DNA of 64,000 nucleotides from Candidatus Latescibacterota bacterium (GTDB lineage: Bacteria > Latescibacterota > UBA2968 > UBA8231). The notes beneath the pieces were generated by a model, which saw only the letters and a list, made by a program, of their open reading frames with translations, had not been told where the DNA came from and made no database searches. Positions 3,759 to 64,000 of this stretch are shown piece after piece (position 1 is the stretch's first letter; every line of letters starts with the position of its first letter). The stretch is from assembly GCA_965215195.1 (NCBI GenBank), contig CBDCDC010000002.1:1856001-1920000 (forward strand), written 5' to 3'. The translations under genes were made by a program, and so were the position numbers.

Positions 3759-3813
3759 GGCCGGCAGATTCCTTGCGATGGGTACAGGTTAAACACCAAA
3801 CAGCTAGCGCCCA

Positions 3814-4524
3814 CTACTTTTTATTTTGTCCGCCAAACTCGATCACTTTTTTTTGCGGCGAGAGGTTGATCTCGTCCAGTACCGTGCCAGCGCGCGCTGT
3901 CAGGGCTTGGACGATGACCTCGGCGACGTCTTCTGGCAGGATGGAGTTGTCGGGTGCTGGGCCGGGCCGAAAGTCCAATTCGTCGAAAAAGGGCGATTGG
4001 ACCATGCCGGGATTGACCAACGTGACGCGGACGCCAGCGCGGGCGCACTCGGCGCGCAGGGCTTGGGCGAAGCCGCGCAGGGCGAATTTGGCCGCGCAAT
4101 ACAAGCTGCCTTGGGCCGTGCCGGCGAGCGCGGCTTCCGATCCCATAAAGACCAAGTGCCCGCGCCCGGCCCTTTTGAGAATGGGCAGGAAAGCGCGGGC
4201 CACGAAGACGTGACTGGTCAAGTTGAGGTCGATCAGGGCGCGAATTTGGCCGTAGGAGAATTGCTCTAGCGCACCGAAGCGGCCGACGCCGGCGTTGAGG
4301 ACCAAGGCGTCGAGGGCCGGGCAGGTGGCGACGAGGTCCTGTAGGTGGGCGGGGAGTTGGTCGAGGTCGGCGAGGTCGATGGCGCGCACCTCAAAGCGGT
4401 GGTCATCGCAGGGGAACTTGCCGAAGTCGCGGGCAATGCCGATGGCGCGATGGCCGTTGGCGAGCAGCCTTTCGCAGATGGCGCGGCCAATGCCGGAACT
4501 GGCACCGGTGACGAGGACGCGCAT
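3814..4524 (-). CDS. Short-chain dehydrogenase/reductase (SDR)
   Basis: TGASSGIG, LNAG, YCAAK catalytic motif, NPGMV. Confidence 0.93.
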   Translation of the reverse strand: MRVLVTGASSGIGRAICERLLANGHRAIGIARDFGKFPCDDHRFEVRAIDLADLDQLPAHLQDLVATCPALDALVLNAGVGRFGALEQFSYGQIRALIDLNLTSHVFVARAFLPILKRAGRGHLVFMGSEAALAGTAQGSLYCAAKFALRGFAQALRAECARAGVRVTLVNPGMVQSPFFDELDFRPGPAPDNSILPEDVAEVIVQALTARAGTVLDEINLSPQKKVIEFGGQNKK

Positions 4525-4525
4525 A

Positions 4526-5533
4526 TCAGACCTGTAGGGTGGTGGAGGGGCAGGGGAAGAAAAGCTCGGCGGGAATGTACTGGAGCAATTGATCCGCGCA
4601 AAAGTCGTGTAGTTTTTGGGCCAAGGCGGGCCGATAGGAGACCATGCCGTCTTTTTGCTCCAAGCCGTACGCGAGGAGCTTTTCGTCCGGGTAGAGCTTG
4701 TGCATGGTCTTGTACATATCCTGCGGCAGGCGGAACTGGCCCAAGCTGACCGAGTGCAGGCGGTCGCGGCGAACCTTGGAGAACGCGAGGGCGAACAGGT
4801 CGCGGTAGCGCTCCTCGTAAGCGCGATCGTAGATCAGCGGATCAAAGCGCAGCCCAATGGGCCAGCCGCGCTCCTGCAGGGCGGCGATGGCCTGCAAGCG
4901 CCGGGCCACGGCCGGTGCGCCGACCTCGAATTGGTCGGCAAGGGCCGGCGGGGTCATGCTGAAGGCGACGACGCAGTTGGGCAGAGCCTCGGTGGCGAGC
5001 AGGGTTTTGATGCGCACGCTCTTGGTGCGCAGTTCAAAGTATGCCTGCGGGTGGTCGGCAAAGAAGGGGAGGAAGTCGCCTGTAAAGTGGGTAATGCCCT
5101 CCAACGCGAGGCTATCGCAGTCGTAGCCAGAAAAGAAATAGGGCGCATCGGGTGCGTCCGCCTCGATGTGCGCGGCAAGGTCCTGCTGGAAATCCTCGTA
5201 GTTGACAAAAAGGACCAAGTGCGCCGAACGGTACAGGCCTTGCAGGAAGCAGTAGCGGCAGTCGTAGGGGCAGTTGAGCAGGTGCGAAAAATAGTAGTTG
5301 CGCTCGCCGCCGATGCCATAGCCGTCGGGGGCGGGGAGGACGCGCCGCCCGGCCTTGTGGGCGAGGATGAGCGCGGGGCGGCGCTTTTGCAGGCGGAAGT
5401 TCTGCGCCGTGCGGTTGAAGACCTCGCCGTAGCGGGCGCAGGGAACTAGCTGAGCGCGGGGGAAGCGGTCTAGCAGGGCGCGGGTGCGCGGGTGGTCGAG
5501 GATGGACTCTTCAGCGTAGATGAAATCGAACAT
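4526..5533 (-). CDS. Spore photoproduct lyase-like radical SAM protein (SplB family)
   Basis: NCPYDCRYCFLQG CxxxCxxC; 'DSLALE', 'ELRTKS', 'GLRFDPLI' are typical of SPL-family proteins. Confidence 0.85.
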   Translation of the reverse strand: MFDFIYAEESILDHPRTRALLDRFPRAQLVPCARYGEVFNRTAQNFRLQKRRPALILAHKAGRRVLPAPDGYGIGGERNYYFSHLLNCPYDCRYCFLQGLYRSAHLVLFVNYEDFQQDLAAHIEADAPDAPYFFSGYDCDSLALEGITHFTGDFLPFFADHPQAYFELRTKSVRIKTLLATEALPNCVVAFSMTPPALADQFEVGAPAVARRLQAIAALQERGWPIGLRFDPLIYDRAYEERYRDLFALAFSKVRRDRLHSVSLGQFRLPQDMYKTMHKLYPDEKLLAYGLEQKDGMVSYRPALAQKLHDFCADQLLQYIPAELFFPCPSTTLQV

Positions 5534-5660
5534 GAGGCGGAGAGCACAAGGCTAATCTAAATGATTTCCAAGGTCAGGCGATTTCAAACATCGTTCTGCA
5601 TTGGCCCCTTACTTCAGACCATGCCCGATATTCGGTTGCGCTAGGCCATCCGCTGCCAAA

Positions 5661-6551
5661 TCAGAACTGGTACAGCAGGCTGAGGCCCGCGCCCCAGAAG
5701 TGGGTGTCGTCCGTCGCGATGGTGTATAGGATCGGCTCGCCGCGCCCCACCGTAGAGTCGTGGCTGCGCAGCTGATCCCACTCGGTTTTTTCGCTCGCGA
5801 ACTCGCCGGAAGCCACCCAGCGCAATTTGAAGTCCAAAGCGGCGTGGTCGCCGATCTGATAGGCCGCGCCGGCGAGCAGTTGATAGCCCATGCGGCGGTC
5901 GGTCAATCGCGCTTGGCCGATTGTGGTTGAACCGGCGATTTTCGCGTTCAAATCCGGGTCTGCAAACGTCCCAATCCGGCTGGGGTCGTCATTGCGTTTC
6001 CAATTGGTAAAATAGTAGAGCGACGTGGTCGCCACTCCGGCTCCAGCCCCGGCGTACGACACCAGCGCCGGCCCCAAGGCAAAGTCGTAGTACGCGTTGG
6101 CGAACAGGTTGTGCGATAGCAAATTATCGACCCCGGCGACCGCCAATTCGATTTCCTGATCTTGCTTGTCGAGGGTTATTTCGTCGAAGATGCCGATGTC
6201 GGAGCGCTCGTCATAGGTCGTGCTGCGGTGGAAGTATTCTCCCTCGATTCTGAAGGCCCCCCAGCGATAGCCAAGGGCGAGGCCCGACCCGATTCCGGAG
6301 CCGCCGCCAAATGAATTTTCCCATGCCGTTGGGGGCGGCGCAGAGTCGCATTCATCGGTCACTTCCAGGCCATCTGGATTGATGATCCGGTCGCACTTGG
6401 TGCTCCAGTCGTTGTCCGTGCCCGTCACGTCCATTGCCGGAGCAACGGCGATCCCCAAGCCCATCTGAATGTACGGCCCGTCTTGGCCTAGGGCTTGGCC
6501 GCAGAAACCCAGCAGGGCGACTATCGACAGCAAAAATTTGTGAGGCATCAC
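5661..6551 (-). CDS. Outer-membrane beta-barrel protein (opacity/OmpA-TM-like 8-stranded family)
   Basis: Signal peptide; 'ALGYRWGAFRIEGEY', 'LFANAYYDF', 'YAGAGAG', 'GYQLLAG'; C-terminal YQF. Confidence 0.75.
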   Translation of the reverse strand: MMPHKFLLSIVALLGFCGQALGQDGPYIQMGLGIAVAPAMDVTGTDNDWSTKCDRIINPDGLEVTDECDSAPPPTAWENSFGGGSGIGSGLALGYRWGAFRIEGEYFHRSTTYDERSDIGIFDEITLDKQDQEIELAVAGVDNLLSHNLFANAYYDFALGPALVSYAGAGAGVATTSLYYFTNWKRNDDPSRIGTFADPDLNAKIAGSTTIGQARLTDRRMGYQLLAGAAYQIGDHAALDFKLRWVASGEFASEKTEWDQLRSHDSTVGRGEPILYTIATDDTHFWGAGLSLLYQF

Positions 6552-7357: not shown

Positions 7358-8167
7358 TCAATAGGTCAAGGTGAACTCCACGTCGGCCAGCAGCCGTTGA
7401 AGATAACGTAACACTTCATCGCGGCTTTGCAAAACCAGCAAGTCGTCGTTGACAATGGGGGTCGTCGGCGCGAGTACCTGCCAGCGCACGAGCAGGCCGC
7501 GCAATTGGTGCTGTTGCGTGGCGGTGAATTGCCAGCGGGCGGTTAGCGCGGCGAACCCGGGCGGATCGGCGTATAGCGCGTGGAGCTGCTGGCTGAGCGA
7601 TTGCAGGTGTTCGCCAACGTGGGTGACCGCATCGAGCTGAGCTTCTATTAACGCTTCCACTTTTTTCGCATTGAGTGTTTGATAAGGAGATTGCGGGTTG
7701 TCGGAGACGACCTTGAGGCAGTGGACTCGCTCGCTGGTGGCAAAGCGCTGGGCGGCTGCGCAAAAGCCGCTGGCCTCCATGTCGCACGCGGCGTCGCCAG
7801 CCGCCGGCTGTACGCGATCTACAGTGTGTAGCCGGGTGGTGCGGCAGGGTGGGGGCGCGGTGAAGGTGGGGTAAAAGGGCTTGGCGCTGGCCGCATCCAC
7901 GACCTTGTGCGCCAGCAGGGCCGTGCCCACCGCTTGGCGGCCGTGTCCGGCGATGCCGATGTTGAGCCAAGCGGCCGGCGCATCGCCGATCAGTGCGCGC
8001 AGGTACGCGGTGGCGGCGGCCGCGGCCACTTTGCCGACGCCGGAGACGATCAGGCGCGTCTGCTCGCCCGCGCAGATGCGATAGGGATGGCCGCCCACGC
8101 CTCGGAGGCGGTAGGAGGCTATCAGCGGGCGGGCTTCGGCCGCTAAGGCGACGATTAAGCACAACAT
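7358..8167 (-). CDS. Nucleoside phosphorylase / MTA-SAH nucleosidase-like protein (PNP_UDP_1 fold)
   Basis: 'IVALAAEA', 'SGVGKVAAAAA', 'NIGIAG', 'CDMEASG', 'KVVSDN'. Confidence 0.8.
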   Translation of the reverse strand: MLCLIVALAAEARPLIASYRLRGVGGHPYRICAGEQTRLIVSGVGKVAAAAATAYLRALIGDAPAAWLNIGIAGHGRQAVGTALLAHKVVDAASAKPFYPTFTAPPPCRTTRLHTVDRVQPAAGDAACDMEASGFCAAAQRFATSERVHCLKVVSDNPQSPYQTLNAKKVEALIEAQLDAVTHVGEHLQSLSQQLHALYADPPGFAALTARWQFTATQQHQLRGLLVRWQVLAPTTPIVNDDLLVLQSRDEVLRYLQRLLADVEFTLTY

Positions 8168-8264
8168 TGCGGGTAATATACCGGCTGGCCGCCCCTCGGC
8201 AACTCGGATTGACCCTGCTTGAGCAGGGGCCTAAGTTCTGGAAGACAAACGAGAAAGGGCGCGT

Positions 8265-9137
8265 ATGGACAACGAATTTTTCAAGGGACACGGCCTCGGC
8301 AATGACTACATTGCCGTCGATCCGGCCGCGCTCAGCTTCGAGCTGACGCCAGACCATATCCGCGCGATTTGCGACCGCCATTGGGGCGTGGGCAGCGACG
8401 GCATTCTCGCGCTGGCGTCGTCGCCAAAGGCCGACTTTGGCCTGCGGATCTACAACCCCGACGGCAGCGAGGCGGAAAAGTCGGGCAATGGCCTGCGGAT
8501 ATTCGCCCGCTATCTGCACGCCACCGGCCAAGTGCAAAAGCAGCGGTTCACGGTCGATACGGAGGGCGGTCTAGTACGCGTTGCGTTGCACCTCGACGAG
8601 CATGGCGACGCCAGCGCGGCCACGGTGGAGATGGGGCGAGCGACGTTTGCGCCAGCGGCCCTGCCCTGCACCCTAGAGGCCGAAGAGCTGGTCGCGCAGC
8701 CGATCGGCGCCGGCGAGCAGACCTTGACCTTTACCGGCGTCAGCGTCGGCAACCCCCACTGCATCGTCTTTCGCGAAAAGGGTGCGCAATGGACCGAAGA
8801 TGAGTTGCGCTCTTTGGGGCCGGAATTGGAAAATCACCCGCTCTTTCCCCGGCGCACCAACGTGCAGCTCGCCGTGCCCTTAGGACCCCATGCGATCTAC
8901 ATTCTGATCTGGGAGCGCGGGGCCGGCCAAACGCAGGCGTCGGGGTCGTCGGCGTGTGCGGCCGCCAGTGCGGCCGTGCGGCTGGGCTTGGTCAAAAGTC
9001 CGGTTGCGGTTGTGGCCCCGGGCGGGACCTTGCACATCGACGTGAGCGCAGGCTACGACCTAACGATGAAGGGGCCGGTCGCCGAAGTGGCGCACGGCGT
9101 GCTCAGCCCGTCGTTTGTGCGCTCTTTGGGCGAGTAG
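8265..9137 (+). CDS. dapF: Diaminopimelate epimerase
   Basis: KGHGLGNDY, 'CDRHWGVGSDG', 'NPDGSEAEKSGNG', 'VGNPHC', 'WERGAGQTQASGSSACA'. Confidence 0.9.
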   Translation: MDNEFFKGHGLGNDYIAVDPAALSFELTPDHIRAICDRHWGVGSDGILALASSPKADFGLRIYNPDGSEAEKSGNGLRIFARYLHATGQVQKQRFTVDTEGGLVRVALHLDEHGDASAATVEMGRATFAPAALPCTLEAEELVAQPIGAGEQTLTFTGVSVGNPHCIVFREKGAQWTEDELRSLGPELENHPLFPRRTNVQLAVPLGPHAIYILIWERGAGQTQASGSSACAAASAAVRLGLVKSPVAVVAPGGTLHIDVSAGYDLTMKGPVAEVAHGVLSPSFVRSLGE

Positions 9138-9239
9138 AGCCGCCATGCCTCGGCCGTTGCGTACGACCTATCCCCCCGGCCCCCTTTCCTGCGGAACGCC
9201 TCCAGCTCCTTCCTTCCCCGCAATCGGGCTCAGCCGTCC

Positions 9240-12014
9240 ATGAGCCTTCTGCTCCGGGCGGTAGGTTGCCTCGCGCTCGTGGCCTCGGCCGCCTTTGGCC
9301 AGGGCTTTGGCCGCAACAAGGTGCAATACGCGGAGTTTGCGTGGCGGAAAATGGAGACCGCGCACTTTGACGTGTACTTCTTTGCCGAAGAGGCCGAGTT
9401 GGCCGCGTATGCCGCACAGATGGCCGAGCGCCAGTTCGTCGATTTAGAAAAGAAGTTCGCCCACACCGTGCAGCGGCGAGTGCCGCTAGTCGTCTATTCC
9501 TCGCACATCTACTTTGAACAGACGAATATCATCCCCAATCTCCTGCCCGAGGGGGTAGCGGGTTTCACCGAATACCTCAAGGGGCGGGTCGCGCTGCCGC
9601 TGAGCGGCTCCCTGCCCGAATTCGAGCGGGTGCTGCACCACGAGTTAGTCCACGTCTTCACATTTGACCGAATTGCGCGGGTGCTGGCGCGGCACGGGGT
9701 GTTGGATTTTCGCCCGGCACCCCTGTGGTTTTCCGAAGGGCTGGCCGAGTACTGGTCGAGCGAGCGCACCAGCTTTGGCGACATGGTGGTGCGCGACGCA
9801 CTCTTTGCGCGGCGGCTGGTGCCCATCGCCGAAATGTACCGCATCTACGGCACCTATCAGCTATACAAGGAAGGCGAGTCGATCTGCCACTTTATGGCGG
9901 CGCGGCACGGAGCCGACGTATTCGAACAGCTCTTTGCCAATTGGTGGCGCGGCGAGACCTTTGGCGAAATTTTTGCCATCACGACCGGCGAGAGCTTGGA
10001 CAAGTTCGACCAGGCTTGGCAATACCACCTGCACAAGCGCCACCTGCCGGCGATTGCCGACCGCGATCCCCCGTCCGAATTGGCCACCGCCCGCACGAGC
10101 CGCGGCTTTAACATCAAGCCCGAAGTCGTCCCCGGCGATAGCAGCGCGTTCTACCACTTCCGCAATGATCAAGGCTATACGCAGATCGTCCGTACGCGCC
10201 GCAATGGTAGTGCGTCCGAGGTCGTGGTCGAAGGCGAACGCCTGCCGCTCTTTGAGTCCCTGCACCCGCTGTCGACGCGGCTGGCCGCCTCCCCGGACGG
10301 CAAGTGGCTGGCGTTTGCAGCCAAGAGCCGGGGCCGCGATCATCTGTACATCTGGGACGTGGAGCAAAAGCGCGTGGTGGGGGATTTGTCGTTTGCCGAA
10401 ATCGTCGCGATTGCGTCGCCGTCGTTTGCGCCCGACGGGCAGCGGCTGGCCTTTGCCGGCAGCGACGAAGGGGGCTGGACCGACATTTATGTGGTCGATG
10501 TAACGGGCGATAGCCTCCGCGCCTTGCGCCGCGACATCTATCACGACCGCGACCCAGACTGGTCGCCCGATGGTCGGCACATCGTCTTCAGTTCCGACCG
10601 CTGGCCCGGGGGGCGGCGCGGCTTCTACAACCTGTTCCTGTGCGATTTGGCGACCGAGCAGATCTCGGCCCTCAGCCGCGGCGAGCACAACGACGGGCAG
10701 CCGCGCTGGTCGCCCGATGGCGAGCGCATCGTCTTTAGCTCCGACCGCGCTGGCGCGTACAACATCTATGCCCTGCAGCTAGCGGGCGAGCGCACTGCGA
10801 CCCGGCGATTGACCCGCGTGTTGACGGGCGCGTTTGATCCGGTGCTGCTAGCCGATGGCCAGCATTTGCTCTTTTCCGGGTATGAGAGCGGGGGCTTCCA
10901 GATCTACGAACTCGCCGTGGATTGGGCCGACAGCGCAGAGGTCAGCTATCAGCGCGTGGAGGAAGCAGCGGCCGAGCCGTGGTCCTTGGCGGGCCTGCGC
11001 GGCCAGAGCGAAGTCGCCAGCCGGCCCTATGAGCGCAAGATGAGTCTCGACATAGCCCAAGGCCAGATCTCGCAGGACCCGGAATTTGGCACCTCGGGCG
11101 GCATCCAAGTGGCCCTGAGCGACGTGCTGGGCAACGACCAGTACCACTTCGTGCTTTCGCACATTGCCGCCAGCCAGGCCGGTTTCTTCGACGGCCTGAA
11201 CGTGGCCTTGACGCGCCTCCACCTCGGCCAGCGGCTCAACGTGTATTGGGGCGCGTTTCGGCTCAACGACCGCTTTTCGAGCCGCTTTGGCCGGTTTGTG
11301 CGCGAAGAGCGTTTGGGTGCCCACATTGGGTTGAGCTATCCCTTTTCCCAGCACGACCGCATCGACACCCGGCTCTCGCTGCGCCACGCCGAAATCGACC
11401 GGCAATTCGAGGGGCGGAAGCTGTCGGGCTGGCTGGCCAACAACTACGTCAGCTATACCCACGACAGCAGCCTGTGGATTCCGACTGGGCCGCTGGAAGG
11501 CCGGCGCTACAGCTTTGGGCTGGCGCAGACGATTGACTTTAAGACCTCGCGGCGGTTCAATATCGCGCTCTTTGGCGACTACCGGCACTACTTTCGCCTC
11601 TCCCAGCGCAGCGCGTTGGCCGTGCGTCTGATGGGCCGGCGCTCCAGCGGCCCAGTGCCCGAGTTCTTCTCCTTGGGGGGCAGTTGGACGCTGCGGGGCT
11701 ATCGCTGGCGCTCGCTGTGGGGCAGCAAGATGGTGCTGTACAACCAAGAATTGCGCTTCCCCTTGGTCGATCGGTTCTTGCTCCGCTTTCCGTTTGGGGC
11801 GATGGAGTTTAGCGCCTTCCGGGGTGCGCTCTTTTTCGACGCGGGCAATGCGTGGAACGACGCCTTCGACCAATGGCGTGCGGCGTTTGGCGCGGGGGTG
11901 CGCTTGGCCTTGGGGGGAGTTTTTGTCTTTCGCTTGGATGCGGCGCGGCGCACGGATTTCAAGTCCATAGATAATGACACGCGCTGGGACTTTTTCTTTG
12001 GCTGGGATTATTAG
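9240..12014 (+). CDS. Omp85/BamA-family outer-membrane protein with N-terminal gluzincin (peptidase MA-like) domain and PD40/TolB-like propeller
   Basis: Signal peptide + FGRNKVQY; HHELVH...EGLAEY; repeated 'WSPDG..IVFSSDR'; barrel motifs 'LGGSWTLRGY', 'ELRFP', 'ALFFDAGNAW', 'FGAGVR'. Confidence 0.85.
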   Translation: MSLLLRAVGCLALVASAAFGQGFGRNKVQYAEFAWRKMETAHFDVYFFAEEAELAAYAAQMAERQFVDLEKKFAHTVQRRVPLVVYSSHIYFEQTNIIPNLLPEGVAGFTEYLKGRVALPLSGSLPEFERVLHHELVHVFTFDRIARVLARHGVLDFRPAPLWFSEGLAEYWSSERTSFGDMVVRDALFARRLVPIAEMYRIYGTYQLYKEGESICHFMAARHGADVFEQLFANWWRGETFGEIFAITTGESLDKFDQAWQYHLHKRHLPAIADRDPPSELATARTSRGFNIKPEVVPGDSSAFYHFRNDQGYTQIVRTRRNGSASEVVVEGERLPLFESLHPLSTRLAASPDGKWLAFAAKSRGRDHLYIWDVEQKRVVGDLSFAEIVAIASPSFAPDGQRLAFAGSDEGGWTDIYVVDVTGDSLRALRRDIYHDRDPDWSPDGRHIVFSSDRWPGGRRGFYNLFLCDLATEQISALSRGEHNDGQPRWSPDGERIVFSSDRAGAYNIYALQLAGERTATRRLTRVLTGAFDPVLLADGQHLLFSGYESGGFQIYELAVDWADSAEVSYQRVEEAAAEPWSLAGLRGQSEVASRPYERKMSLDIAQGQISQDPEFGTSGGIQVALSDVLGNDQYHFVLSHIAASQAGFFDGLNVALTRLHLGQRLNVYWGAFRLNDRFSSRFGRFVREERLGAHIGLSYPFSQHDRIDTRLSLRHAEIDRQFEGRKLSGWLANNYVSYTHDSSLWIPTGPLEGRRYSFGLAQTIDFKTSRRFNIALFGDYRHYFRLSQRSALAVRLMGRRSSGPVPEFFSLGGSWTLRGYRWRSLWGSKMVLYNQELRFPLVDRFLLRFPFGAMEFSAFRGALFFDAGNAWNDAFDQWRAAFGAGVRLALGGVFVFRLDAARRTDFKSIDNDTRWDFFFGWDY

Positions 12015-56229: not shown

Positions 56230-56392
56230 AAGAATATGATGTCGATAATGATACTACATGTCAAGCAAAAGCGGCTCCTCCGTCGAGTTGTTATCACGGT
56301 CAACAGGCACGCCGCCGCCCGCGCTTGAACCCCCTCCGTCGATACTCTATCTTGACAGCCGCTCCTCCCATTCCACAGACAAAGCAAATCCC

Positions 56393-59300
56393 ATGTCCAA
56401 ACTACTCAATGTGTCCTTTTTGCTGTTCGCCGCTGCCATGATTGCGGTCGTCGGTTTTGGCGATCCGGGCGCAATCAATCAAGCGGTAAACGATTTCTTC
56501 GGCTGGGCACCCAATCCGCCCGTAGAGACGCGGCTGGTGGATCCCGCGCAAGCCGCCCAGCTACGCGCTCTAGTCGCCGATATTGACGAGGCCGACATTG
56601 CCGCTGCGATCGCACGCTTTGCGGCCTTTGGCTCGCGGGTGCCGGGCTACGACGGAGAGCGCCAGGCCCGCGACTACGTGCGCCAGCGGTTTGAGGCGCT
56701 GGGGCTGGAGAACGTGCAGAGCGAGGCGTTTACTGTGGCCGTGCCCATCGATCGCGGCGGCGAGCTAGTGGTGCAAGGCGAGCGCAAACGCCTGTACAGC
56801 TTGTGGCCCAATGGCGTACGCACGCCCTCGCTGGGGCCGGATGGGGTGCGCGGCCCCCTAATCTACGGGGGGGAACTAACCGCGCTCGATGGCCAGCAGG
56901 TGGAAGGCAGCGTCGTGCTCATGGACTTTGGCTGTGGCCAGCAGTACCTCCACGCCGCATCGCTGGGGGCCAAGGCCATCGTCTTTTTCGACAACGGCGG
57001 CGTCAACCGCGAGCAGGCCGCGGACAAGTTCCTCAAGGTGCCGGTTGACATCCCGCGATTTTGGCTCGAGCGGCGAGACGCGCTCGCGCTGTTGGCGCGC
57101 CTGCAAGACGGGCCGGTCGCCGTCCACTTAAATGCGCGGATGGATTGGCAAGGCGTGGAAGCGCACAACGTGTATGGCTACCTGCCCGGGTCGCCACAGA
57201 TGCTGCCGGCCAAGAGCCGAGAAAAGCCGCAGGCGTGGCAGGAGCAAACCATCGTCATCCAAGCCTATTACGACGCCATCTCGGTCGTGCCGGCCCTCGC
57301 CCCGGGGGCGGAAAACGCGGCCGGGATCGTCGCCCTGCTCCAGCTAGTGGAGCTGCTCAAAGCGCATCGCCCGCACTACTCGGTGCTCTTTTTGGCAACC
57401 TCCGGGCACTTTCAGGGCCTGTCCGGGATCAACGATTTCCTCTACCGGCACAGCCGCCGCAGCGACTATTTCCGCGAGCGCATGAGCGCGGCCGAGCGCA
57501 TTGACTTCGACCTGATGCTATCGCTGGATCTGTCGAGCCACGCCGACCGCACGGCCAGCTTTGGCATGGGCACCTTCTACAATCCCAAGTGGCGCACCGA
57601 CAACTACGTCAAATACATGTTGACGCCCTATTCCAAGCGGTTGAGCCTCGCGGTTGAAGAGACCTTTGGCGACACCACGCGTCACTACGAGGGCATTGCC
57701 CCGCCCAAGCGCACGTGGAAAAACTTCATGCCCATCCCGCTCGCCTTTGCCAGCGAGGCCGCGGCCTTCGTCGGCTATAAGGCCCTCGCCCTCGCTACGG
57801 CCAACGACGCACGCGAGCACATCGACACGCCGCTCGACCTGCCGGAGGCCGTAGATGTGCACAATCTCACTCGGCAGATACGGACGCTCGCGGCCATGTT
57901 GGCGTGGGCCGGCCGCGACGCCGAGCTGCTCAAGCCGACCAAGTTGGAACTCGAAGACTACGGCCACAGCTTGGCGGGCGCGATCTATTGGTTCGACCGG
58001 GACGTCAACTTTGCCGTCCCCAAGAAGCCAGTGCCGCAGGCGCTGGTGACCTATCAGCAGCTCGGAACGAACTCGGTCGGCGGAGTTCGCACCTTGATCG
58101 CGCAAGAGGCCGACGATGCGGGCCGCTTCCACTTTGACATCATGCGCAACAAGCTAGACAACGCCATCCGCGCGTACGAACTCGATCCCTACGGCGCGAT
58201 TATCTCGGCACCGGACATGGGCCAAGAGGGCGACGAAACGTACCCGACCATGCATCCGTGGGGCTGGTGGGAAAACGAGATGCTGCAAGTGCTCTTCAAA
58301 TGCCGAGCGCTGAGCTTGTTCGAGACCGTTGACTCGCGCTACCTGTCGGTCTTGGACCACGTGACCGTACTCGACGAGCGCGATGGCGTGCCCCAGTCGT
58401 GGGGGGCCGATTTCGTCGAAAAGCAGAGCAATGAGGAGGGCAAAGTAACCCTCGCTGCGGTGGTGTACGCCCAACCCGGCACCCGGGTCAAAGTCCTGAT
58501 GAGCACGAGCCTGTTCGGGGTGCGCTACCTGCTGAGCGGCGCACCCGCCGAATGGGTGGCCGAGCCGGTGCGCCCGGCCGACGTGGATGAGCCCATGATA
58601 GAGCAGGCCCTCGGGCGCGGCTATCCCGTGGATCGAGGCGTGGTGCTCCGCCCGGGGTACGCGGCCGCGCGCGACATGTGGGTCCTCGACGACGTGCGGA
58701 TCAAGCAGCTCGCACGCTACGGGGTGCGCAACGACAAGTTCATGCGCCTGCACGAAGAGGCGCGCTTGGCCCTGTTGGAGGCCGAAGAGCACTTGCAGGC
58801 GCAGCGGTACAGCGAGTTCAAGCGGGCCACGCGCAAGGCGTGGGGTCTCGAAGGGCGGGGCTACCCAGACATCAAATCGACCGCGGACGACACAGTCTAT
58901 GGGGTGATCTTCTACTTCGCGCTGCTGCTGCCGTTTTCGTTTTGCTGCGAGCGGCTGTTCTTCGGCTTTGCCGACATCCGCCGCCAAGTGGCGGGCGCGG
59001 CGTTTTTCTTCTTGGCGATCTTCCTCGTCATGCGCTTTATCCACCCGGCCTTCAAGCTGAGCTCATCGCCGTACATCATCTTTTTGGCCTTCGTCATTTT
59101 CGCCATCGGCGGCACGGCCCTGCTGATGATCTTGGGCCGCTTTACCCGCGCCGTAGGCCAGCGCAAGCGGGCCGCGGCCGGCGTCCACGAAGCGGACATC
59201 GGTCGCCTCAGCGCCACGGCCGCGGCCGCGTCGCTGGGGATTTCCAACCTGCGCAAGCGCAAGTTGCGCACCGCCCTGACGGTTGTCACCCTGACGCTTT

Positions 59301-61006
59301 TGACCTTTACGGCCCAGGCCTTCACCTCGGTGCAGAGCTATCTCAAGTTCTATCAGATCCCCCGCCCGAATGCGCCCAGCTACGAAGGGGCCCTGCTGCG
59401 CGACCGCGGCTGGAAGGGCTTGCAGCTATCGGTGCTCGACTATGCAGAGAGCGCGTTTGGCGACCGAGCGCAGGTGCTGCCGAGGTCGTGGGTGACCTCC
59501 AAGGTCATTGGCGAGCGGGCCTATATCGACATTGAACACAAGCTGGCGCAGAAGAAGAGCTTTGCCTCGGCCCTCCTCGGGGTGACCCCGGGCGAGGGCG
59601 CGGTGATGGGGTTGGAGGGGCTGTTGGTGGGGCCGGCGAGCCGCTGGTTTGCGGCCGGCGAGCGCGATGTGTGCATCCTGCCGGTGGCTATGGCCGCGAT
59701 CTTGGGCATTGGCCCGGACAAGGTGGGCACGGCCCACATTGGGCTGATGGGGCGGTCCTATCGGGTCATTGGCTTAATCGACGGCGAGGCCATTGACCGG
59801 CTGCGCGACTTGGACAACGAGAGCCTGATGCCCGTGGACACGGTCGCCGAGGCCAAGAAGATGGAGGAAATGGCCGGCTTGGACCCGCGCCTGATGGACA
59901 CGGCCGCGATTGAGACCTTTACCCATCTGCTGGCCAACAACGTGGCGTTCTTGCCCTACCAGCAGGTCGTCGATTTGGGCGGTACGCTGCGCTCCATTGC
60001 CATTGCCGGCTTTGCCGATCGGGAGACCTTGCTCGCCGAGGTTGAGGAATTCGTGTCGCGGGTGGCCGTGCCGCTCTTTGTCGGGGCTGGCGACCGCGTG
60101 CGGGTGTACACGTCCATGGGATCGGCGTCTTTGGCCGGGATTGGCAACCTCTTCGTGCCCTTGTTGATCGCCTCGCTGATCGTGCTCAACACCATGCTCG
60201 GGGCCGTGTACGAGCGCTCCGGCGAGATCGGGGTGTATTCGTCGGTGGGGCTGGCGCCGAGCCACATTGCCGCGCTCTTCATGGCCGAGGCCCTCGTGTT
60301 TGCCATTGTCGGCGCGGTGCTGGGCTATTTGGTCGGGCAGACCACGACCCTGCTGCTGGCGCACTACGCGCTCTTGAGCGGAATGTTTCTCAACTACTCG
60401 TCGCTGTCGGCGATCTTCTCGACCTTGATCGTAATGGTGGTGGTGGTGCTCTCGACCCTGTATCCGGCGCGCAAGGCCGCGGCCATGGCCGTGCCCGACG
60501 TGACGCGGCGCTGGGAGTTTCCCCCGCCCGATGGCGACGACTGGCGCTTTGACTTCCCCTTTACGCTGGGCAAGGGCGATGCCTTGGGCTCGTGCGCGTA
60601 CTTGCACCGGGTCTTTTCGTCCTATGGCGAGGGATCGGTGGGCGACTTTATGACCGAGGGCGTGGATTTCCACTTGGAGCAGGGCGGCGCACAGCCGGTC
60701 TATTTGCTGGAGCTGATGGTGTGGCTCGCGCCCTACGACTTGGGGGTGAGCCAGCGGGTGTTCCTACGCACCTTGCCGACCGACGACATTCCGGGCATTT
60801 ACCGCATTGAGATGCACTTACAGCGCATAAGCGGCGATGTGGTGAGCTGGCAGCGGCTCAACACCAGCTTCCTCAATGTGCTGCGCAAGCGCTTCTTGGT
60901 CTGGCGGACGATTGCGCCCGAAGTGCGAGAGGAATACTTGATTGAGGGCGAGAAGTTGGCGCAGGGGACGGGGGTGGCGCAACCACAAGTTCTAGATATT
61001 AGCTGA
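56393..61006 (+). CDS. Large membrane protein: degenerate M28/PA peptidase-like domain fused to MacB/FtsX-type ABC permease domains
   Basis: 'FGSRVPGYDGE', PA-like region, 'AYYDAISVVPALAPGAE'; TM cluster; 'ISNLRKRKLRTALT'; FtsX 'NTMLGAVYERSGEIGVYSSVGLAP', 'LYPARKAA'. Confidence 0.8.
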   Translation: MSKLLNVSFLLFAAAMIAVVGFGDPGAINQAVNDFFGWAPNPPVETRLVDPAQAAQLRALVADIDEADIAAAIARFAAFGSRVPGYDGERQARDYVRQRFEALGLENVQSEAFTVAVPIDRGGELVVQGERKRLYSLWPNGVRTPSLGPDGVRGPLIYGGELTALDGQQVEGSVVLMDFGCGQQYLHAASLGAKAIVFFDNGGVNREQAADKFLKVPVDIPRFWLERRDALALLARLQDGPVAVHLNARMDWQGVEAHNVYGYLPGSPQMLPAKSREKPQAWQEQTIVIQAYYDAISVVPALAPGAENAAGIVALLQLVELLKAHRPHYSVLFLATSGHFQGLSGINDFLYRHSRRSDYFRERMSAAERIDFDLMLSLDLSSHADRTASFGMGTFYNPKWRTDNYVKYMLTPYSKRLSLAVEETFGDTTRHYEGIAPPKRTWKNFMPIPLAFASEAAAFVGYKALALATANDAREHIDTPLDLPEAVDVHNLTRQIRTLAAMLAWAGRDAELLKPTKLELEDYGHSLAGAIYWFDRDVNFAVPKKPVPQALVTYQQLGTNSVGGVRTLIAQEADDAGRFHFDIMRNKLDNAIRAYELDPYGAIISAPDMGQEGDETYPTMHPWGWWENEMLQVLFKCRALSLFETVDSRYLSVLDHVTVLDERDGVPQSWGADFVEKQSNEEGKVTLAAVVYAQPGTRVKVLMSTSLFGVRYLLSGAPAEWVAEPVRPADVDEPMIEQALGRGYPVDRGVVLRPGYAAARDMWVLDDVRIKQLARYGVRNDKFMRLHEEARLALLEAEEHLQAQRYSEFKRATRKAWGLEGRGYPDIKSTADDTVYGVIFYFALLLPFSFCCERLFFGFADIRRQVAGAAFFFLAIFLVMRFIHPAFKLSSSPYIIFLAFVIFAIGGTALLMILGRFTRAVGQRKRAAAGVHEADIGRLSATAAAASLGISNLRKRKLRTALTVVTLTLLTFTAQAFTSVQSYLKFYQIPRPNAPSYEGALLRDRGWKGLQLSVLDYAESAFGDRAQVLPRSWVTSKVIGERAYIDIEHKLAQKKSFASALLGVTPGEGAVMGLEGLLVGPASRWFAAGERDVCILPVAMAAILGIGPDKVGTAHIGLMGRSYRVIGLIDGEAIDRLRDLDNESLMPVDTVAEAKKMEEMAGLDPRLMDTAAIETFTHLLANNVAFLPYQQVVDLGGTLRSIAIAGFADRETLLAEVEEFVSRVAVPLFVGAGDRVRVYTSMGSASLAGIGNLFVPLLIASLIVLNTMLGAVYERSGEIGVYSSVGLAPSHIAALFMAEALVFAIVGAVLGYLVGQTTTLLLAHYALLSGMFLNYSSLSAIFSTLIVMVVVVLSTLYPARKAAAMAVPDVTRRWEFPPPDGDDWRFDFPFTLGKGDALGSCAYLHRVFSSYGEGSVGDFMTEGVDFHLEQGGAQPVYLLELMVWLAPYDLGVSQRVFLRTLPTDDIPGIYRIEMHLQRISGDVVSWQRLNTSFLNVLRKRFLVWRTIAPEVREEYLIEGEKLAQGTGVAQPQVLDIS

Positions 61007-61037: not shown

Positions 61038-61472
61038 TTATTCCTCTTTTACGGCACCCAACTGCATCGCCGGGTTCTCGATTTTTTCTTTGGAGGCGGC
61101 GGTAGCGAGTTTTTGATCGAAGGTCGCCAGCTTGGCCTTGCGGCGGATGGCTGTTGCCAAATAGCTGGCATCGTATACAGTCAGGTCGTGGCGTTGTGCG
61201 AGGTCCAGAACCGTGGCTTCGTCGCGTGCGGTGTCCTCGCATAATGAAAGCTCGTCCGCGAGCTGAATCAGGCAGGTATCAAAATGCCGTTGGTCTATGC
61301 GCTTACGACGTTTCGCCCTGAGCAAAACGTTGCGAATCTCATACCAAAAAATGATCGGCGCGATGCGCTTTTCGGTATCCAATTGTTCCAGCAAAGCGCG
61401 GGCAAAGTCACTATGCTCTTCGTCGGGCAGTAGCTGGGCCGCTATCACCGAAGCGTCGATTACCGTAGCCAT
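61038..61472 (-). CDS. vapC: VapC family PIN-domain toxin
   Basis: 'VIDASV', 'WYEIRNVL', 'LTVYDASYL', 'LATFDQKL'; all four acidic PIN positions present; TGATG overlap with the Res gene. Confidence 0.9.
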   Translation of the reverse strand: MATVIDASVIAAQLLPDEEHSDFARALLEQLDTEKRIAPIIFWYEIRNVLLRAKRRKRIDQRHFDTCLIQLADELSLCEDTARDEATVLDLAQRHDLTVYDASYLATAIRRKAKLATFDQKLATAASKEKIENPAMQLGAVKEE

Positions 61473-64000
61473 CAACGCCGGCCCTCTTCTTTCCAGTGGC
61501 GAATTTCCTGCTGCGTCACCGGCCGCATCTGCCGCTGGCGTTCACTCGATGTTTTAAGTGCTCTTCTCCAGATGAACGCGCCCAATGTCGGGTACTCGGT
61601 GGTAAACTCGTCTTGGTTGATGCGCGTGTACTTCCAAGATTTGCCGGTGATTTTGCTTACGCGCTTGCACCAGTCCCGCGCTGCGGCGTCCTTTTCGGCA
61701 GTGCCTTCCCAGACTCGGCCTTTGGTTTCGATGATCCAGTTCACTTCGCTGCCTTGGGTCTCTTGGACCACTACCCAGTCGGGATAGTAGAAGCCGATGG
61801 CACCGCTAGGCTTTAGATAGTCGATGCGGAACACGGTTCCGGAATTGCCCTGTTCCGTCGTCCCAAGTGCTGCGAAGCGCACGACATCTCCGGAGCGGTC
61901 CAAGAACGCTGCGAAGCTACGCTCAAAGCCGTTGTAGGTGGCGACGAAATTGAAAATAGTTTTCTTCGCCTCCAACGGCGGCAAGTTTCTTCTCCAGCTA
62001 AAGGGTTTCGTCAGGGATAGACGATAATCCTCTTTCTCGAACTCGACTGTACGCCGCTCGATGGTGAGCGCAGCGATCTCGCGGGCCATGTATCTGGCAA
62101 TACCCTCCTGCAACTCTAGCCGTGCCAGATGCGAGCGGATAGTTCCATCGGCCAGTTCGATTTTTCGCCCAAAACAACGGTTCACCACATAGTCCTGCAC
62201 AAGCGGATACATCTCCGCGAAGCAGTTGGTTAGCTTGGCATAATCAGCGGTCTTGTTGGCAATGCTCGCTAGAAGCTCTTGGGCGGGCCGTGGCTCCATA
62301 GCAATGTCGGCTTGATGTACCTCAGTCGCCGTGGTTGTGAATTGCATCTTCAGGCTGACCTGAAACGGTTCGGCTAGTTCTTCTTGGTCGAAAATCGCTT
62401 CAAGCGAATACACATCCAAGGTGGACAGCTTGCGGAAATTATGCGTTAGGCTTGGCTTGGTGACTGGAATAGCGATGTCGTACTTCAGCCGCTCTTGCAC
62501 AGGCCCGATGATGACCGGCAGCGGCGGATTGGTGTCAGTACTGGCTATACCGACTCCCTCGGCTTCCAGTTGATCTCGTAGGACTTTGAGCAAGTTTCGC
62601 GTGCCAAGCACCTCTAGGGTCTGCGTTTGGTCGGGGCTTACCTGTGTCATCAGGCGCAGTCCGCGACCAATCACCTGTTCCGGGAGTATCTCGGCTTGTG
62701 CAGTGAAAGGCCGCAATCCCAGTACCACTGTCACGTTGCGTACGTCCCACCCTTCGCGCAGCATCATCACGCTGACAATAGCTTTAATTTTACTCTCGGC
62801 CTTGTCGATGTCTCGCGCTGCTTGCCGCGCCTTGTCAATGTCTCCTTTTCGAACTTCTCCCGTATTGTTCGTGTGGATGATAAGCACCTCGGATTCCTTG
62901 AAGCCGAATTCCTTGGTCTTCCACAGGCACTTCCCCAAGGCGTCTGCATAGAGATTCTTCTCAGCCATGACAAAAAGTACCGGCCTAGTGTTGAGCTTGT
63001 TGTAGGTTTGCCAGTGTTCCTTCCAGCGCTGCACAGCGGCCTGTAGCCAGTAGCCGTACTTCTCCGCCACGTTTTCCTTGGTAACCCCGTCGGGGTCTTC
63101 GGTTGGCTGATTCGGATCATTCTCTTTGGTGACGATGAGCGGTGCCTTGACGATTTTGTCCTCCACGGCTTGTGCCAACGGGTAGTCCACAACCGTCCAA
63201 GGGAAGTACATGCCATTTTGGTCTTTCGGCGTGGCCGAAAAGTCGAGCCAAGCGTAGAGGCCCTGTGGCAGAGAGTTGTGAATGGCGAGCAGCGATTGAC
63301 TCCAAGCCAAGTCCTCGTCGTGGACGTGATGTGCTTCGTCATTTAGCACGACGAGGTCCTTTAGCGATTTCACGCGCTCCAGCGTGGAGTGCTGACCGGA
63401 TGACGCGAGGTCCTGTGCGGGCTTCTTGCCCAAGAGGGCTTCAACGGCATTTTCCGGTGTCCACTCCTCGTCGCAAGATTCGTAGAGTTGGTGAATGTTG
63501 GTGAGGAATAGATTCCCGGACGGGTCTGGCTCGGCGGCCTCGCCGCGCAGAATCACCTTTTGCGCGAAGCTGCCTTTCCACTCTGGTGGGATCAAGGGCA
63601 ATTCATGGAATATCCGGTTGTCGGCAAAATCCTTTTCTAATCGCTGATAGACGATCACATTGGGGGCGACGATGAGGAAGTTCGTGGAGAGATCCGAGCC
63701 GGGTACGCGCTGCTTGTGGAAGCGCGACCAGACGACCGCCATGGCCATCACCCAGGTTTTGCCCGAACCAGTGGCCATCTTGAAGGCGAAACGGCGCAGG
63801 TCTTCGGGCGGTAAGTCTTGGACGCCGTCTCGGTCCAGTTCCGGCACGTAGCGACGAAGCTGTCGCTGGCCGTTCATTGTGGTCTGAAATTCGATATTAT
63901 TCGAGAATAAGTCTTTCTGAGTAATTTTTCCGTACGTCTCAATGAGTGCCTTGGCATCTCGCTGCCCGGCGATCTCTACTAGCCACACCAGCGTCTCGAT
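61472..64000 (-). CDS. Type III restriction enzyme Res subunit (5'-truncated by window) with antitoxin-like C-terminal extension
   Basis: FKMATGSGKT, DEAHH, 'MLREGWDV', 'EQVIGRGLR', nuclease 'YYPDW...IIETKG'; frame is open to the window edge. Confidence 0.9.
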   Translation of the reverse strand: METLVWLVEIAGQRDAKALIETYGKITQKDLFSNNIEFQTTMNGQRQLRRYVPELDRDGVQDLPPEDLRRFAFKMATGSGKTWVMAMAVVWSRFHKQRVPGSDLSTNFLIVAPNVIVYQRLEKDFADNRIFHELPLIPPEWKGSFAQKVILRGEAAEPDPSGNLFLTNIHQLYESCDEEWTPENAVEALLGKKPAQDLASSGQHSTLERVKSLKDLVVLNDEAHHVHDEDLAWSQSLLAIHNSLPQGLYAWLDFSATPKDQNGMYFPWTVVDYPLAQAVEDKIVKAPLIVTKENDPNQPTEDPDGVTKENVAEKYGYWLQAAVQRWKEHWQTYNKLNTRPVLFVMAEKNLYADALGKCLWKTKEFGFKESEVLIIHTNNTGEVRKGDIDKARQAARDIDKAESKIKAIVSVMMLREGWDVRNVTVVLGLRPFTAQAEILPEQVIGRGLRLMTQVSPDQTQTLEVLGTRNLLKVLRDQLEAEGVGIASTDTNPPLPVIIGPVQERLKYDIAIPVTKPSLTHNFRKLSTLDVYSLEAIFDQEELAEPFQVSLKMQFTTTATEVHQADIAMEPRPAQELLASIANKTADYAKLTNCFAEMYPLVQDYVVNRCFGRKIELADGTIRSHLARLELQEGIARYMAREIAALTIERRTVEFEKEDYRLSLTKPFSWRRNLPPLEAKKTIFNFVATYNGFERSFAAFLDRSGDVVRFAALGTTEQGNSGTVFRIDYLKPSGAIGFYYPDWVVVQETQGSEVNWIIETKGRVWEGTAEKDAAARDWCKRVSKITGKSWKYTRINQDEFTTEYPTLGAFIWRRALKTSSERQRQMRPVTQQEIRHWKEEGRR

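Follow-up and report, generated by a model that had tools for sequence, protein, structure and literature searches.

In a 64,000-nt stretch of the genome of a Candidatus Latescibacterota bacterium (contig CBDCDC010000002.1; hereafter the window, to which the coordinates refer), the gene for a Type III-like restriction subunit, res, is followed directly by vapC, a gene for a PIN-domain toxin, and the two genes probably constitute a type II toxin-antitoxin (TA) pair whose antitoxin survives only as the toxin-binding C-terminal module, attached by fusion to the end of the restriction subunit. As in type II TA systems, the putative antidote is encoded upstream of the toxin gene and overlaps it, the antidote module here being the 3' end of res. 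The anatomy of this arrangement is conserved and non-random. TA pairs and restriction-modification (RM) systems cluster in defense islands, and to our knowledge a physical link between the two has rarely been shown, PrrC with EcoprrI being the classic case; here, such a link appears to be written in the protein sequence, in the form of the neutralizing peptide of a common antitoxin family at the end of a restriction subunit. Further sequence of the same genome was used for the complete res gene and for the region of the methyltransferase gene mod. The features that define the pair are the following:

61038..61472, minus strand: vapC, gene for a 144-aa PIN-domain toxin (ATG at 61470-61472, stop codon at 61038-61040; Pfam PIN match)
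61472..64000, minus strand: res, gene for a Type III-like restriction subunit (gene start outside the window, residues 105-946 inside; Pfam ResIII and PADLOC matches)
61470..61474, minus strand: TGATG, the overlap of the Res stop codon and the vapC start codon (one shared base; TGA at 61472-61474, ATG at 61470-61472)
61475..61564, minus strand: C-terminal tail of Res, residues 917-946, antitoxin-like and presumed to neutralize VapC (absent from tail-less homologues; supported by hhalign and covariation)
61482..61486, minus strand: GAGGG, likely Shine-Dalgarno sequence of vapC (in the E943-G944 codons, 9 nt before the ATG)

The Res tail and its junction with vapC

The full-length Res protein consists of 946 aa, with the 5' end of its gene at the equivalent of window position 64312 and the reading frame accordingly open at the end of the window, and terminates in ...WRRALKTSSERQRQMRPVTQQEIRHWKEEGRR (also given as ...FIWRRALKTSSERQRQMRPVTQQEIRHWKEEGRR). 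The one-base overlap with vapC (a stop/start offset of +2) is found in 9 of 14 related loci, the offsets in the others being +4, +4, +8, +8 and -10, and is presumed to couple the translation of vapC to that of res; an alternative vapC start, TTG, is listed one codon upstream of the ATG. VapC matches the Pfam PIN profile (PF01850, E 4.7e-15) and possesses all four acidic residues of the PIN active site (D6, E45, D101 and D119), which are invariant in 13 Res-linked VapCs and, across 143 members of the family, either invariant or conserved to above 90%. Its AlphaFold2 (AF2) model has a predicted local distance difference test score (pLDDT) of 96, and the nearest solved folds identified by Foldseek are PIN/VapC toxins; the score against TIGR00028 (18.4 bits) is under the cut-off of 73.6 bits, and no PADLOC model matches the protein.

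No separate antitoxin gene is present at the locus: vapC is separated by 31 nt from a convergent gene that ends at 61006, and upstream of it lies only Res. Neither a VapC paralogue (the next tblastn match has E 1.1) nor a further copy of the tail is present in the genome, and a search with the tail only among proteins of 33-105 aa returned no candidate with three shared 5-residue words. The possibility of an antitoxin hidden in another frame of the res 3' end was considered and rejected, given that such open reading frames (ORFs) are not conserved between loci and that the codon-position variation fits the Res frame. A preliminary description of this stretch had reported a tail of ~30 aa on Res whose stop overlaps the vapC start in TGATG, the lack of a stand-alone antitoxin and the retention of the acidic active-site residues of VapC, and all of these points are borne out on the minus strand.

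The tail is indeed an extension, absent from a distinct group of Res homologues. Among the best 119 of the 1548 homologues detected, 95 carry the tail (visibly decayed in 1 of them), 23 end ~30 residues sooner and 1 record is cut short. The NCBIfam profile BPTD_3080 (NF046055) stops at position 957 of 970 with 47 Res residues remaining, which points to ~30-35 extra residues in Res. Two classes of tails are recognizable, with the consensus ..ERxxxMxPVTQxEIRxWKEEGRR (class 1) and ..RERDxRxxTMSREEVRQARDEGRA (class 2). On a tree of 107 Res bodies from which the last 50 residues had been removed, the distribution of the tail requires 2 changes, compared with a mean of 16.1 in shuffled data (0 of 500 shuffles were as low); the tail-less rows group in a single clade of 16, and a seventeenth row scored as "tail-less" carries a decayed tail.

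In ten class-1 loci, the variable sites of the tail are distributed over the three codon positions as 22/17/32 and the pairwise differences as 474/372/830. Because third codon positions vary most, the tail is taken to be read in the Res frame and to be subject to selection at the protein level; the codon of the conserved arginine differs between loci (CGG, CGT, CGC or AGA), so this residue is selected as an amino acid. In 10 of 13 loci, the GAGGG sequence is retained without change amid codons that vary synonymously, and it probably doubles as the ribosome-binding site of vapC. The AF2 model of Res is of moderate quality (mean pLDDT 68, predicted template modelling score 0.49); in it, the nuclease domain closes with a strand at residues 892-899, followed by tail helices at 910-928 and 934-942, along which pLDDT falls from 82 to 52.

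Relationship of the tail to Phd-type antitoxins and to VapC

The preliminary description likened the tail to the C-termini of Phd-type antitoxins, and the comparison with the antitoxins of related VapCs substantiates this view. In the phylum of the window's genome, distant VapC relatives (31-38% identity) are encoded behind small antitoxins, and in 5 of 11 such loci the antitoxin has an ending similar to that of the Res tail. The endings ..SIREMIDEGRK*, ..HAEIREWIEEGRD and ..SIREMIEEGRRF belong to antitoxins with an N-terminal Phd/YefM domain (Pfam PhdYeFM, E 3e-14 to 5e-11; PF02604 was found in the antitoxins of loci L092, L094 and L096), the ending ..SIKEMVEEGRE* to an antitoxin without a recognized domain, and the ending ..QIIRKAREEGRP* to an antitoxin with a FitA-like ribbon-helix-helix (RHH) domain. 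A scan of metagenome contigs that started from VapC covered the best 80 of 304 relatives, 77 of which were evaluable: 4 are linked to a Res with the tail, 69 to small antitoxin-like ORFs, and 4 are ambiguous. The N-terminal parts of the 69 small ORFs were judged Phd-like by eye from the ...ITRHG... region; examples of their C-termini are ..SAAEIRAARDEGRA, ..PVTTEEILAWKHEGHRH, ..RPSVSAAEIRAARDEGRA, ..KPVTTEEILAWKHEGHRH and ..PVSIEEILAMRDEGRM*.

An hhalign comparison of the profile of 51 unique antitoxin C-termini with that of 86 Res tails aligned 29 columns end to end (residues 917-946) with 96.1% probability (P 3.1e-9); the observed score of 36.4 compares with a mean of 8.4 and a maximum of 17.6 in 100 column shuffles, and an earlier, narrower antitoxin set had given 66.9% (P 5e-5). 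These observations support the homology of the Res tail to the toxin-binding C-terminal module of the Phd-type antitoxins that accompany the same VapC family. Since individual tails mostly score insignificantly, the case for homology is built on the comparison of the two profiles and on the relatedness of the tails among themselves. Pfam recognizes no family in the last 82 residues of Res, no Phd, RHH or AbrB domain was found in Res or its tail with Pfam and NCBIfam, and the alignment of the tail to the antitoxins is confined to their C-terminal module; because the defining N-terminal domain is absent, the Res tail is not a member of the Phd family (PF02604).

The tail varies together with VapC to a greater extent than the body of Res does. 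Across 14 loci, identity to the window's tail correlates with identity to the window's VapC (Spearman 0.83, p 2.7e-4), compared with a coefficient of 0.10 for identity to the window's Res body and VapC identity. In Mantel tests on all pairs of 15 loci with an intact VapC, r is 0.89 for tail and VapC and 0.68 for body and VapC, and the partial correlation of tail and VapC given the Res body is 0.83 (p 2e-4, 5000 permutations); the loci being kin, these p-values overstate their independence. The covariation supports a partnership between the tail and VapC. In the VapC tree, the Res-linked VapCs are split between two well-supported clades, one for each class of tail. This tree needs 2-3 changes, and a topology that holds all 18 Res-linked VapCs together passes the approximately unbiased test (p-AU 0.43, long-branch row L193 left out), such that the classes could stem from one capture or two, a single origin not being rejected.

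Adjacency, translational coupling and covariation speak for a partnership and say nothing of its sign, and in principle the tail could be a docking peptide by which VapC, as a working accessory nuclease rather than a latent toxin, joins the restriction complex to attack, for example, phage RNA or structured nucleic acid where restriction takes place. Matelska et al. (2017) described PIN genes in operons with Type I HsdR/M/S subunits, some without a recognizable antitoxin, considered other mechanisms for such couplings, and stated that a direct interaction of TA systems with RM systems had not yet been demonstrated; no fused antitoxin module is reported there, and the term 'type III' does not occur in the main text (PMC5499597). 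Such a docking role for the Res tail seems highly unlikely to us, given that the tail is homologous to a module that neutralizes the same VapC family in ordinary Phd-VapC pairs, that the corresponding segment blocks the active site in solved VapBC complexes (PMC5389673), and that the pattern of decay described below, in which an intact vapC never occurs without the tail, is that of a toxin and its antidote.

Co-occurrence and decay of the tail, vapC and mod

A set of 80 loci (L numbers), from contigs representing one genome per species, was searched with a hidden Markov model (HMM) of the VapC family. The set includes 17 Res proteins with the tail, plus L020, in which the tail is degenerate. 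The HMM matched in 14 of the 80 loci, all of them tail-bearing and with the matching gene starting at the Res stop, and in none of the remaining 66; 12 of the 63 loci without a tail have less than 450 nt downstream and hence are not judgeable there. In 13 of the 14 loci vapC is intact, and in L042 it is truncated at 119 aa. The arrangement is not unique to this assembly and recurs across phyla, the metagenome-assembled genomes of the clade belonging to Latescibacterota, Gemmatimonadota, Gammaproteobacteria and Acidobacteriota. Tail-bearing Res homologues without a vapC neighbour, named in the preliminary description as a refuting outcome, are found in three of the 17 tail-bearing loci (L003, L040 and L019), two of which keep the beginning of the gene, namely the first four codons in L003 and the first five in L040. 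These absences look like losses, and the tail itself is degenerate in L040 and L020, where vapC is gone.

In two loci without vapC, other genes stand behind res. In L003, the closest relative of the window's locus, vapC is deleted after the fourth codon, and two genes on the opposite strand stand in its place (7863-9615, minus strand), encoding a 364-aa AAA_21 ATPase (PADLOC AriA 1e-20, AbiLi 1e-18) and a 222-aa protein without a family match, so that a PARIS/AbiL-like pair occupies the exact former position of the toxin. In L020, from Rhodothermales (3800-5933), the tail of Res is degenerate and extended (..LTLREQVQWRAAGHNLKLDVDE*), and a 594-aa ATPase similar to OLD, NsnB, AriA and GajA is encoded 243 nt downstream of Res.

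A survey of 168 genomes of the window's phylum (G numbers) identified a res-linked vapC in 11. Four of these have intact mod, res and vapC; the window's own genome has intact res and vapC with mod deleted; two have intact mod and res with a frameshifted or truncated vapC; two retain only a C-terminal fragment of Res and a broken vapC; and two have deletions that run from res into vapC. Taking both sets together, Res is intact and vapC lost or broken in L003, L019, L040, L042, G102 and G059, both genes are broken in G053, G052, G136 and G131, and an intact vapC without a full tail-bearing Res was found in 0 cases among the 80 loci and 168 phylum genomes. This asymmetric decay is the pattern to be expected if Res is the antidote. 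In G136 and G131 (L113 and L115), which belong to the same genus, the deletions fuse fragments of res to fragments of vapC while mod is intact, leaving orphan methyltransferases after the loss of the res-vapC pair.

Several observations weigh against the interpretation of res-vapC as a TA pair. The tail-bearing Res proteins form approximately one clade, and therefore the 14 co-occurrences of tail and vapC are not independent events; one of the 3 tail-bearing Res proteins (out of 17) that lack vapC, that of L019, has an undecayed tail and no vapC remnant. Part of the conservation of the "EEG" segment may reflect selection at the RNA level because GAGGG hardly varies. The DNA-binding domain of canonical antitoxins, and with it autoregulation, is absent, and in 6 of the 11 stand-alone loci of the phylum the antitoxin has a different ending. 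With E-values computed for a database of 133,617 six-frame ORFs of this genome, an HMM of the 51 antitoxin C-termini matches only 7 of the 86 Res tails at E <= 1e-3 (best 2.3e-5), 8 at <= 0.01 and 15 at <= 1, in every case at the extreme C-terminus, and 22 show no match whatever. The window's own tail is not significant with this HMM (E 3.6, seventh row of the domain table and fifth ORF), and with a five-sequence HMM it reaches E 0.64, though at rank 1 of the 133,617 ORFs. With an HMM built on the C-termini of a single Phd antitoxin's 120 close homologues, the Res ORF is not among the 8 rows listed (the weakest with E 12); this profile is too narrow, and the outcome counts as a negative result.

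Co-folding of VapC with residues 903-946 of Res, based on alignments of 143 and 83 rows, respectively, had been suggested as a check and gave a weak pass. The score of 0.33 (runs 0.30, 0.34 and 0.33; best of three controls 0.00) reaches a mark that 58 of 80 solved complexes also reach, as do 2 of 110 mismatched pairs, but it lies in the range up to 0.60 that contains 7 of those 80 complexes and both passing mismatches. The runs share at least 45% of contacts, with a partner pLDDT of at least 52, and the model lends weak support to binding of the tail by VapC. A sequence search of the PDB returned no complex of this VapC subfamily, the four matches at E <= 1 being lone PIN proteins or unrelated.

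One could also imagine that the tail is a functionless relic of a deletion that joined res to the 3' end of a phd gene, kept because it provides the ribosome-binding site and start context of vapC, and that VapC is inert, expressed very weakly or neutralized in another way. The nucleotide-level conservation of GAGGG and TGATG in and at the tail, the poor scores of the window's own tail against the antitoxin HMMs and the frequent decay of vapC would all be compatible with such a relic. Nevertheless, we deem it improbable: protein-level conservation extends over ~30 residues, far past any ribosome-binding site, with the third-position excess (22/17/32) and the synonymous arginine codons described above; the tail covaries with VapC given the Res body (partial Mantel 0.83); the four catalytic acidic residues are kept in 13 of 13 Res-linked VapCs at 35-78% identity; and the tail decays where vapC is gone (L040 and L020).

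The mod gene, which the preliminary description had expected beyond position 64000, is indeed there, just outside the window, but only as a stub (L002 4316-4534, minus strand, equivalent to window positions 64315-64533). An in-frame internal deletion of ~1.66 kb has left 72 aa, corresponding to the first ~10 and the last ~58 codons, and the end of the stub aligns to the final ~50 positions of a model for Type III methyltransferases (E 2.4e-7); no close copy of mod was found elsewhere in the genome, the best match being 31% identical. The possibility that the arrangement is an assembly artefact was rejected, given that it recurs in many assemblies and that contigs assembled independently from two sequencing runs span vapC, res, the deletion junction and the mod stub without a difference; these runs belong to one study and possibly to the source sample itself. 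In related loci, mod lies upstream of res in 19 of 19 cases and is full-length except in L020, where it is cut by the contig end (for L004, the match of Mod to N6_N4_Mtase has E 1.5e-40). A full cognate mod gene directly upstream of res is a feature of the relatives that this genome lacks.

In the absence of Mod, cleavage by a Type III Res is not to be expected. Because mod is internally deleted, the restriction system of this genome is probably dead, and there is probably no working system left to guard. All columns of the helicase and nuclease motifs of Res are nevertheless intact here, and vapC is whole. The survival of res-vapC without mod would fit the idea that an active vapC prevents the loss of res; a recent deletion fits equally.

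Two genes are located upstream of the mod stub (L002 4757-6888, minus strand, equivalent to window positions 64756-66887), encoding a RadC-like JAB protein (PF04002, E 1.6e-35) and a 488-aa protein that combines SLFN_AlbA_2, HATPase_c_4 and Fic-like_C domains; both are also found upstream of mod in L003. In L007, L012, L013, L019 and L042, mod ends 200-750 nt before res (at ~4250-5000), with a small extra ORF between the two genes; the gap ORFs of L019 and L042 encode 242 and 164 aa, ending in ..GLTEQELAARRRDG.

Possible mode of action, known systems and further features of the locus

Based on the anatomy of the locus and on analogy with solved VapBC complexes, we propose a tentative model for the res-vapC pair. 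Translation of VapC would be coupled to the Res stop through TGATG, with GAGGG in the codons of the tail, so that VapC would never exceed Res. VapC would then dock on the last ~30 residues of Res, that is, a helix, a short linker, a second helix (..VTQxEIRxW..) and the terminal EEGRR, and the terminal arginine, flanked by acidic residues, would plug the acidic active site of the PIN domain. As long as intact Res continues to be made, the RNase would remain silent; loss or disruption of res, an arrest of its synthesis or degradation of the exposed tail would free VapC, which would be expected to cleave RNA and arrest growth. The probable net effect would be that res, and hence the mod-res locus, is hard to lose and that interference with Res is punished. 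Since the antitoxin lacks its DNA-binding half, expression would have to follow the mod-res operon. The pair may serve to make the locus addictive, to provide a backup triggered by phages, or both.

A more specific proposal is that VapC acts as a guardian comparable to PrrC, held latent on Res and released by a phage attack on Res, with abortive infection as a second line of defense, beyond mere addiction, as the outcome. This possibility, which we find attractive but rather unlikely, would be in line with a toxin that is physically tied to a defense enzyme instead of a DNA-binding antitoxin, with the model of the terminal tail helix (pLDDT falling from 62 to 52), which would suit a peptide that is exposed, flexible and possibly labile, and with the existence of RM guardians as an accepted category, PrrC and PARIS among them (PMC12707154). 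The ATPases that replace vapC in L003, with their small partner, or follow the decayed tail in L020 indicate that the slot behind res repeatedly holds modules of the abortive-infection type. Against a guardian role stands the frequent loss or breakage of vapC with mod and res intact (G102, G059, L003, L019, L040 and L042), which implies that vapC is dispensable for the RM system. Moreover, in the window's genome the deletion of mod leaves an intact res-vapC pair with nothing functional to guard, a situation that addiction fits at least as well, and no PADLOC model of a defense system matches VapC. Only tentatively do we suggest that the tailed Res enzymes, a widespread clade with a peptide captured from a Phd-type antitoxin, act as both sensor and antidote of VapC, in which case an attack on Res by anti-restriction proteins, proteolysis or shut-off of host synthesis would lead to abortive infection.

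Among the known systems, the closest to the proposed TA pair are the Phd/YefM-VapC pairs, with which it shares the family of the PIN toxin, the overlapping, antidote-first gene order and the module of ~30 aa (..E[IL]xxx[RK][DE]EGR..). They differ in that their module is preceded by an N-terminal Phd domain for DNA binding and dimerization, whereas here this place is taken by a restriction subunit of 916 aa, and autoregulation by operator binding has presumably been lost in res-vapC.

PrrC is an ABC-ATPase fused to a HEPN-like nuclease, and its activation by T4 Stp has been demonstrated. Within the Type Ic RM locus of EcoprrI, PrrC is likewise a latent RNase thought to be silenced by the restriction enzyme (PMC12707154), but the toxin is of another family, the partner is of Type I, and no antitoxin-derived peptide is described on its enzyme. 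PARIS (AriA/AriB) is a restriction guardian that senses anti-restriction (PMC12707154), and an AriA-like ATPase is found at the vapC position in L003; the proteins and the mechanism of PARIS are unrelated to those of Res-VapC, and the L003 pair resembles it by best match only, its partner being without a match. The review that names PrrC and PARIS as RM guardians, a 2025 account of RM biology, does not contain the word VapC (PMC12707154).

In the solved VapBC complexes of Caulobacter crescentus, Rickettsia felis and Shigella flexneri, the C-terminus of the antitoxin lies in a groove of the toxin, with an arginine, itself flanked by acidic residues, directed into the active site of the PIN domain (PMC5389673). 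VapC of the window shares the PIN fold with C. crescentus VapBC1, R. felis VapBC2, S. flexneri VapBC and FitAB (Foldseek), but sequence identity to these is 14-18%, their antitoxins are stand-alone proteins of the AbrB or RHH type, and the paired R...R pseudo-palindrome described for solved VapBC antitoxins (PMC5389673) is not evident, by eye, in the Res tail.

The individual parts, namely a VapC toxin, a Phd-type C-terminal module and a Type III-like Res, are known, and their combination was found in no publication searched; a literature search that included BPTD_3080, with subscription journals and supplementary files outside its scope, returned no description of an antitoxin tail fused to Res. 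If the proposed TA pair is real, it could serve as a model for an enzyme that doubles as an antitoxin, for how addiction could arise in RM loci whose type does not confer it by itself, and for the guarding of a restriction enzyme. The modularity of antitoxins would reach down to a peptide of ~30 aa that can be moved onto unrelated proteins, and such short C-terminal modules might be portable tags that wire defense enzymes to suicide effectors. For genome annotation, it is relevant that vapC genes of this kind resemble orphan toxins.

Apart from the tail, the following motifs were noted in the Type III-like Res:

63755..63775, minus strand: helicase motif I, ATGSGKT, residues 180-186 (invariant or near-invariant columns, inside the ResIII match)
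63329..63340, minus strand: helicase motif II, DEAH, residues D325, E326, A327 and H328 (invariant columns)
61718..61783, minus strand: putative nuclease core, P844 D845 W846 ... E862 T863 K864 G865 (invariant in 32 and in 86 homologues)

The protein contains a ResIII-type helicase/ATPase domain of superfamily 2, in which motifs I and II are present (Pfam ResIII, E 3.2e-17), and matches the Type III restriction enzyme model of PADLOC (REase_III, E 2.2e-19); the match to Pfam RE_endonuc is weak (E 0.002, 18.4 bits, with a cut-off of 23.4 bits). The PDW...ETKG motif of the nuclease is presumably of the PD-(D/E)xK type. With 220.4 bits for the part of Res inside the window and 299.6 bits for the full homologue of L004, compared with a cut-off of 800, Res is by the NCBI threshold a relative, not a member, of the BPTD_3080 equivalog family. 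No close Res homologue was found on plasmids, where identity is at most 32% and the alignments stop short of the tail.

A second, independent fusion was suspected in L057 (7701-8297), where a 959-aa Res homologue carries a different, proline-rich extension of ~55 aa and is followed 6 nt on by a PIN gene that belongs to a different subfamily (Pfam E 5e-12), adjoined by a canonical Phd-PIN pair. The extension shows no detectable similarity to the C-terminus of the neighboring paralogous Phd antitoxin (BLASTP E 0.19, in the wrong part of the protein, and 75% of 5000 shuffles score as high), which is the only paralogue in that genome, and this case remains a lead. On the other side of the window's locus, the gene convergent with vapC (56258-61006, plus strand) encodes a 1582-aa protein with PA and M28 peptidase domains and a C-terminal FtsX-like permease domain, and is conserved beside the locus in L003 and L004.

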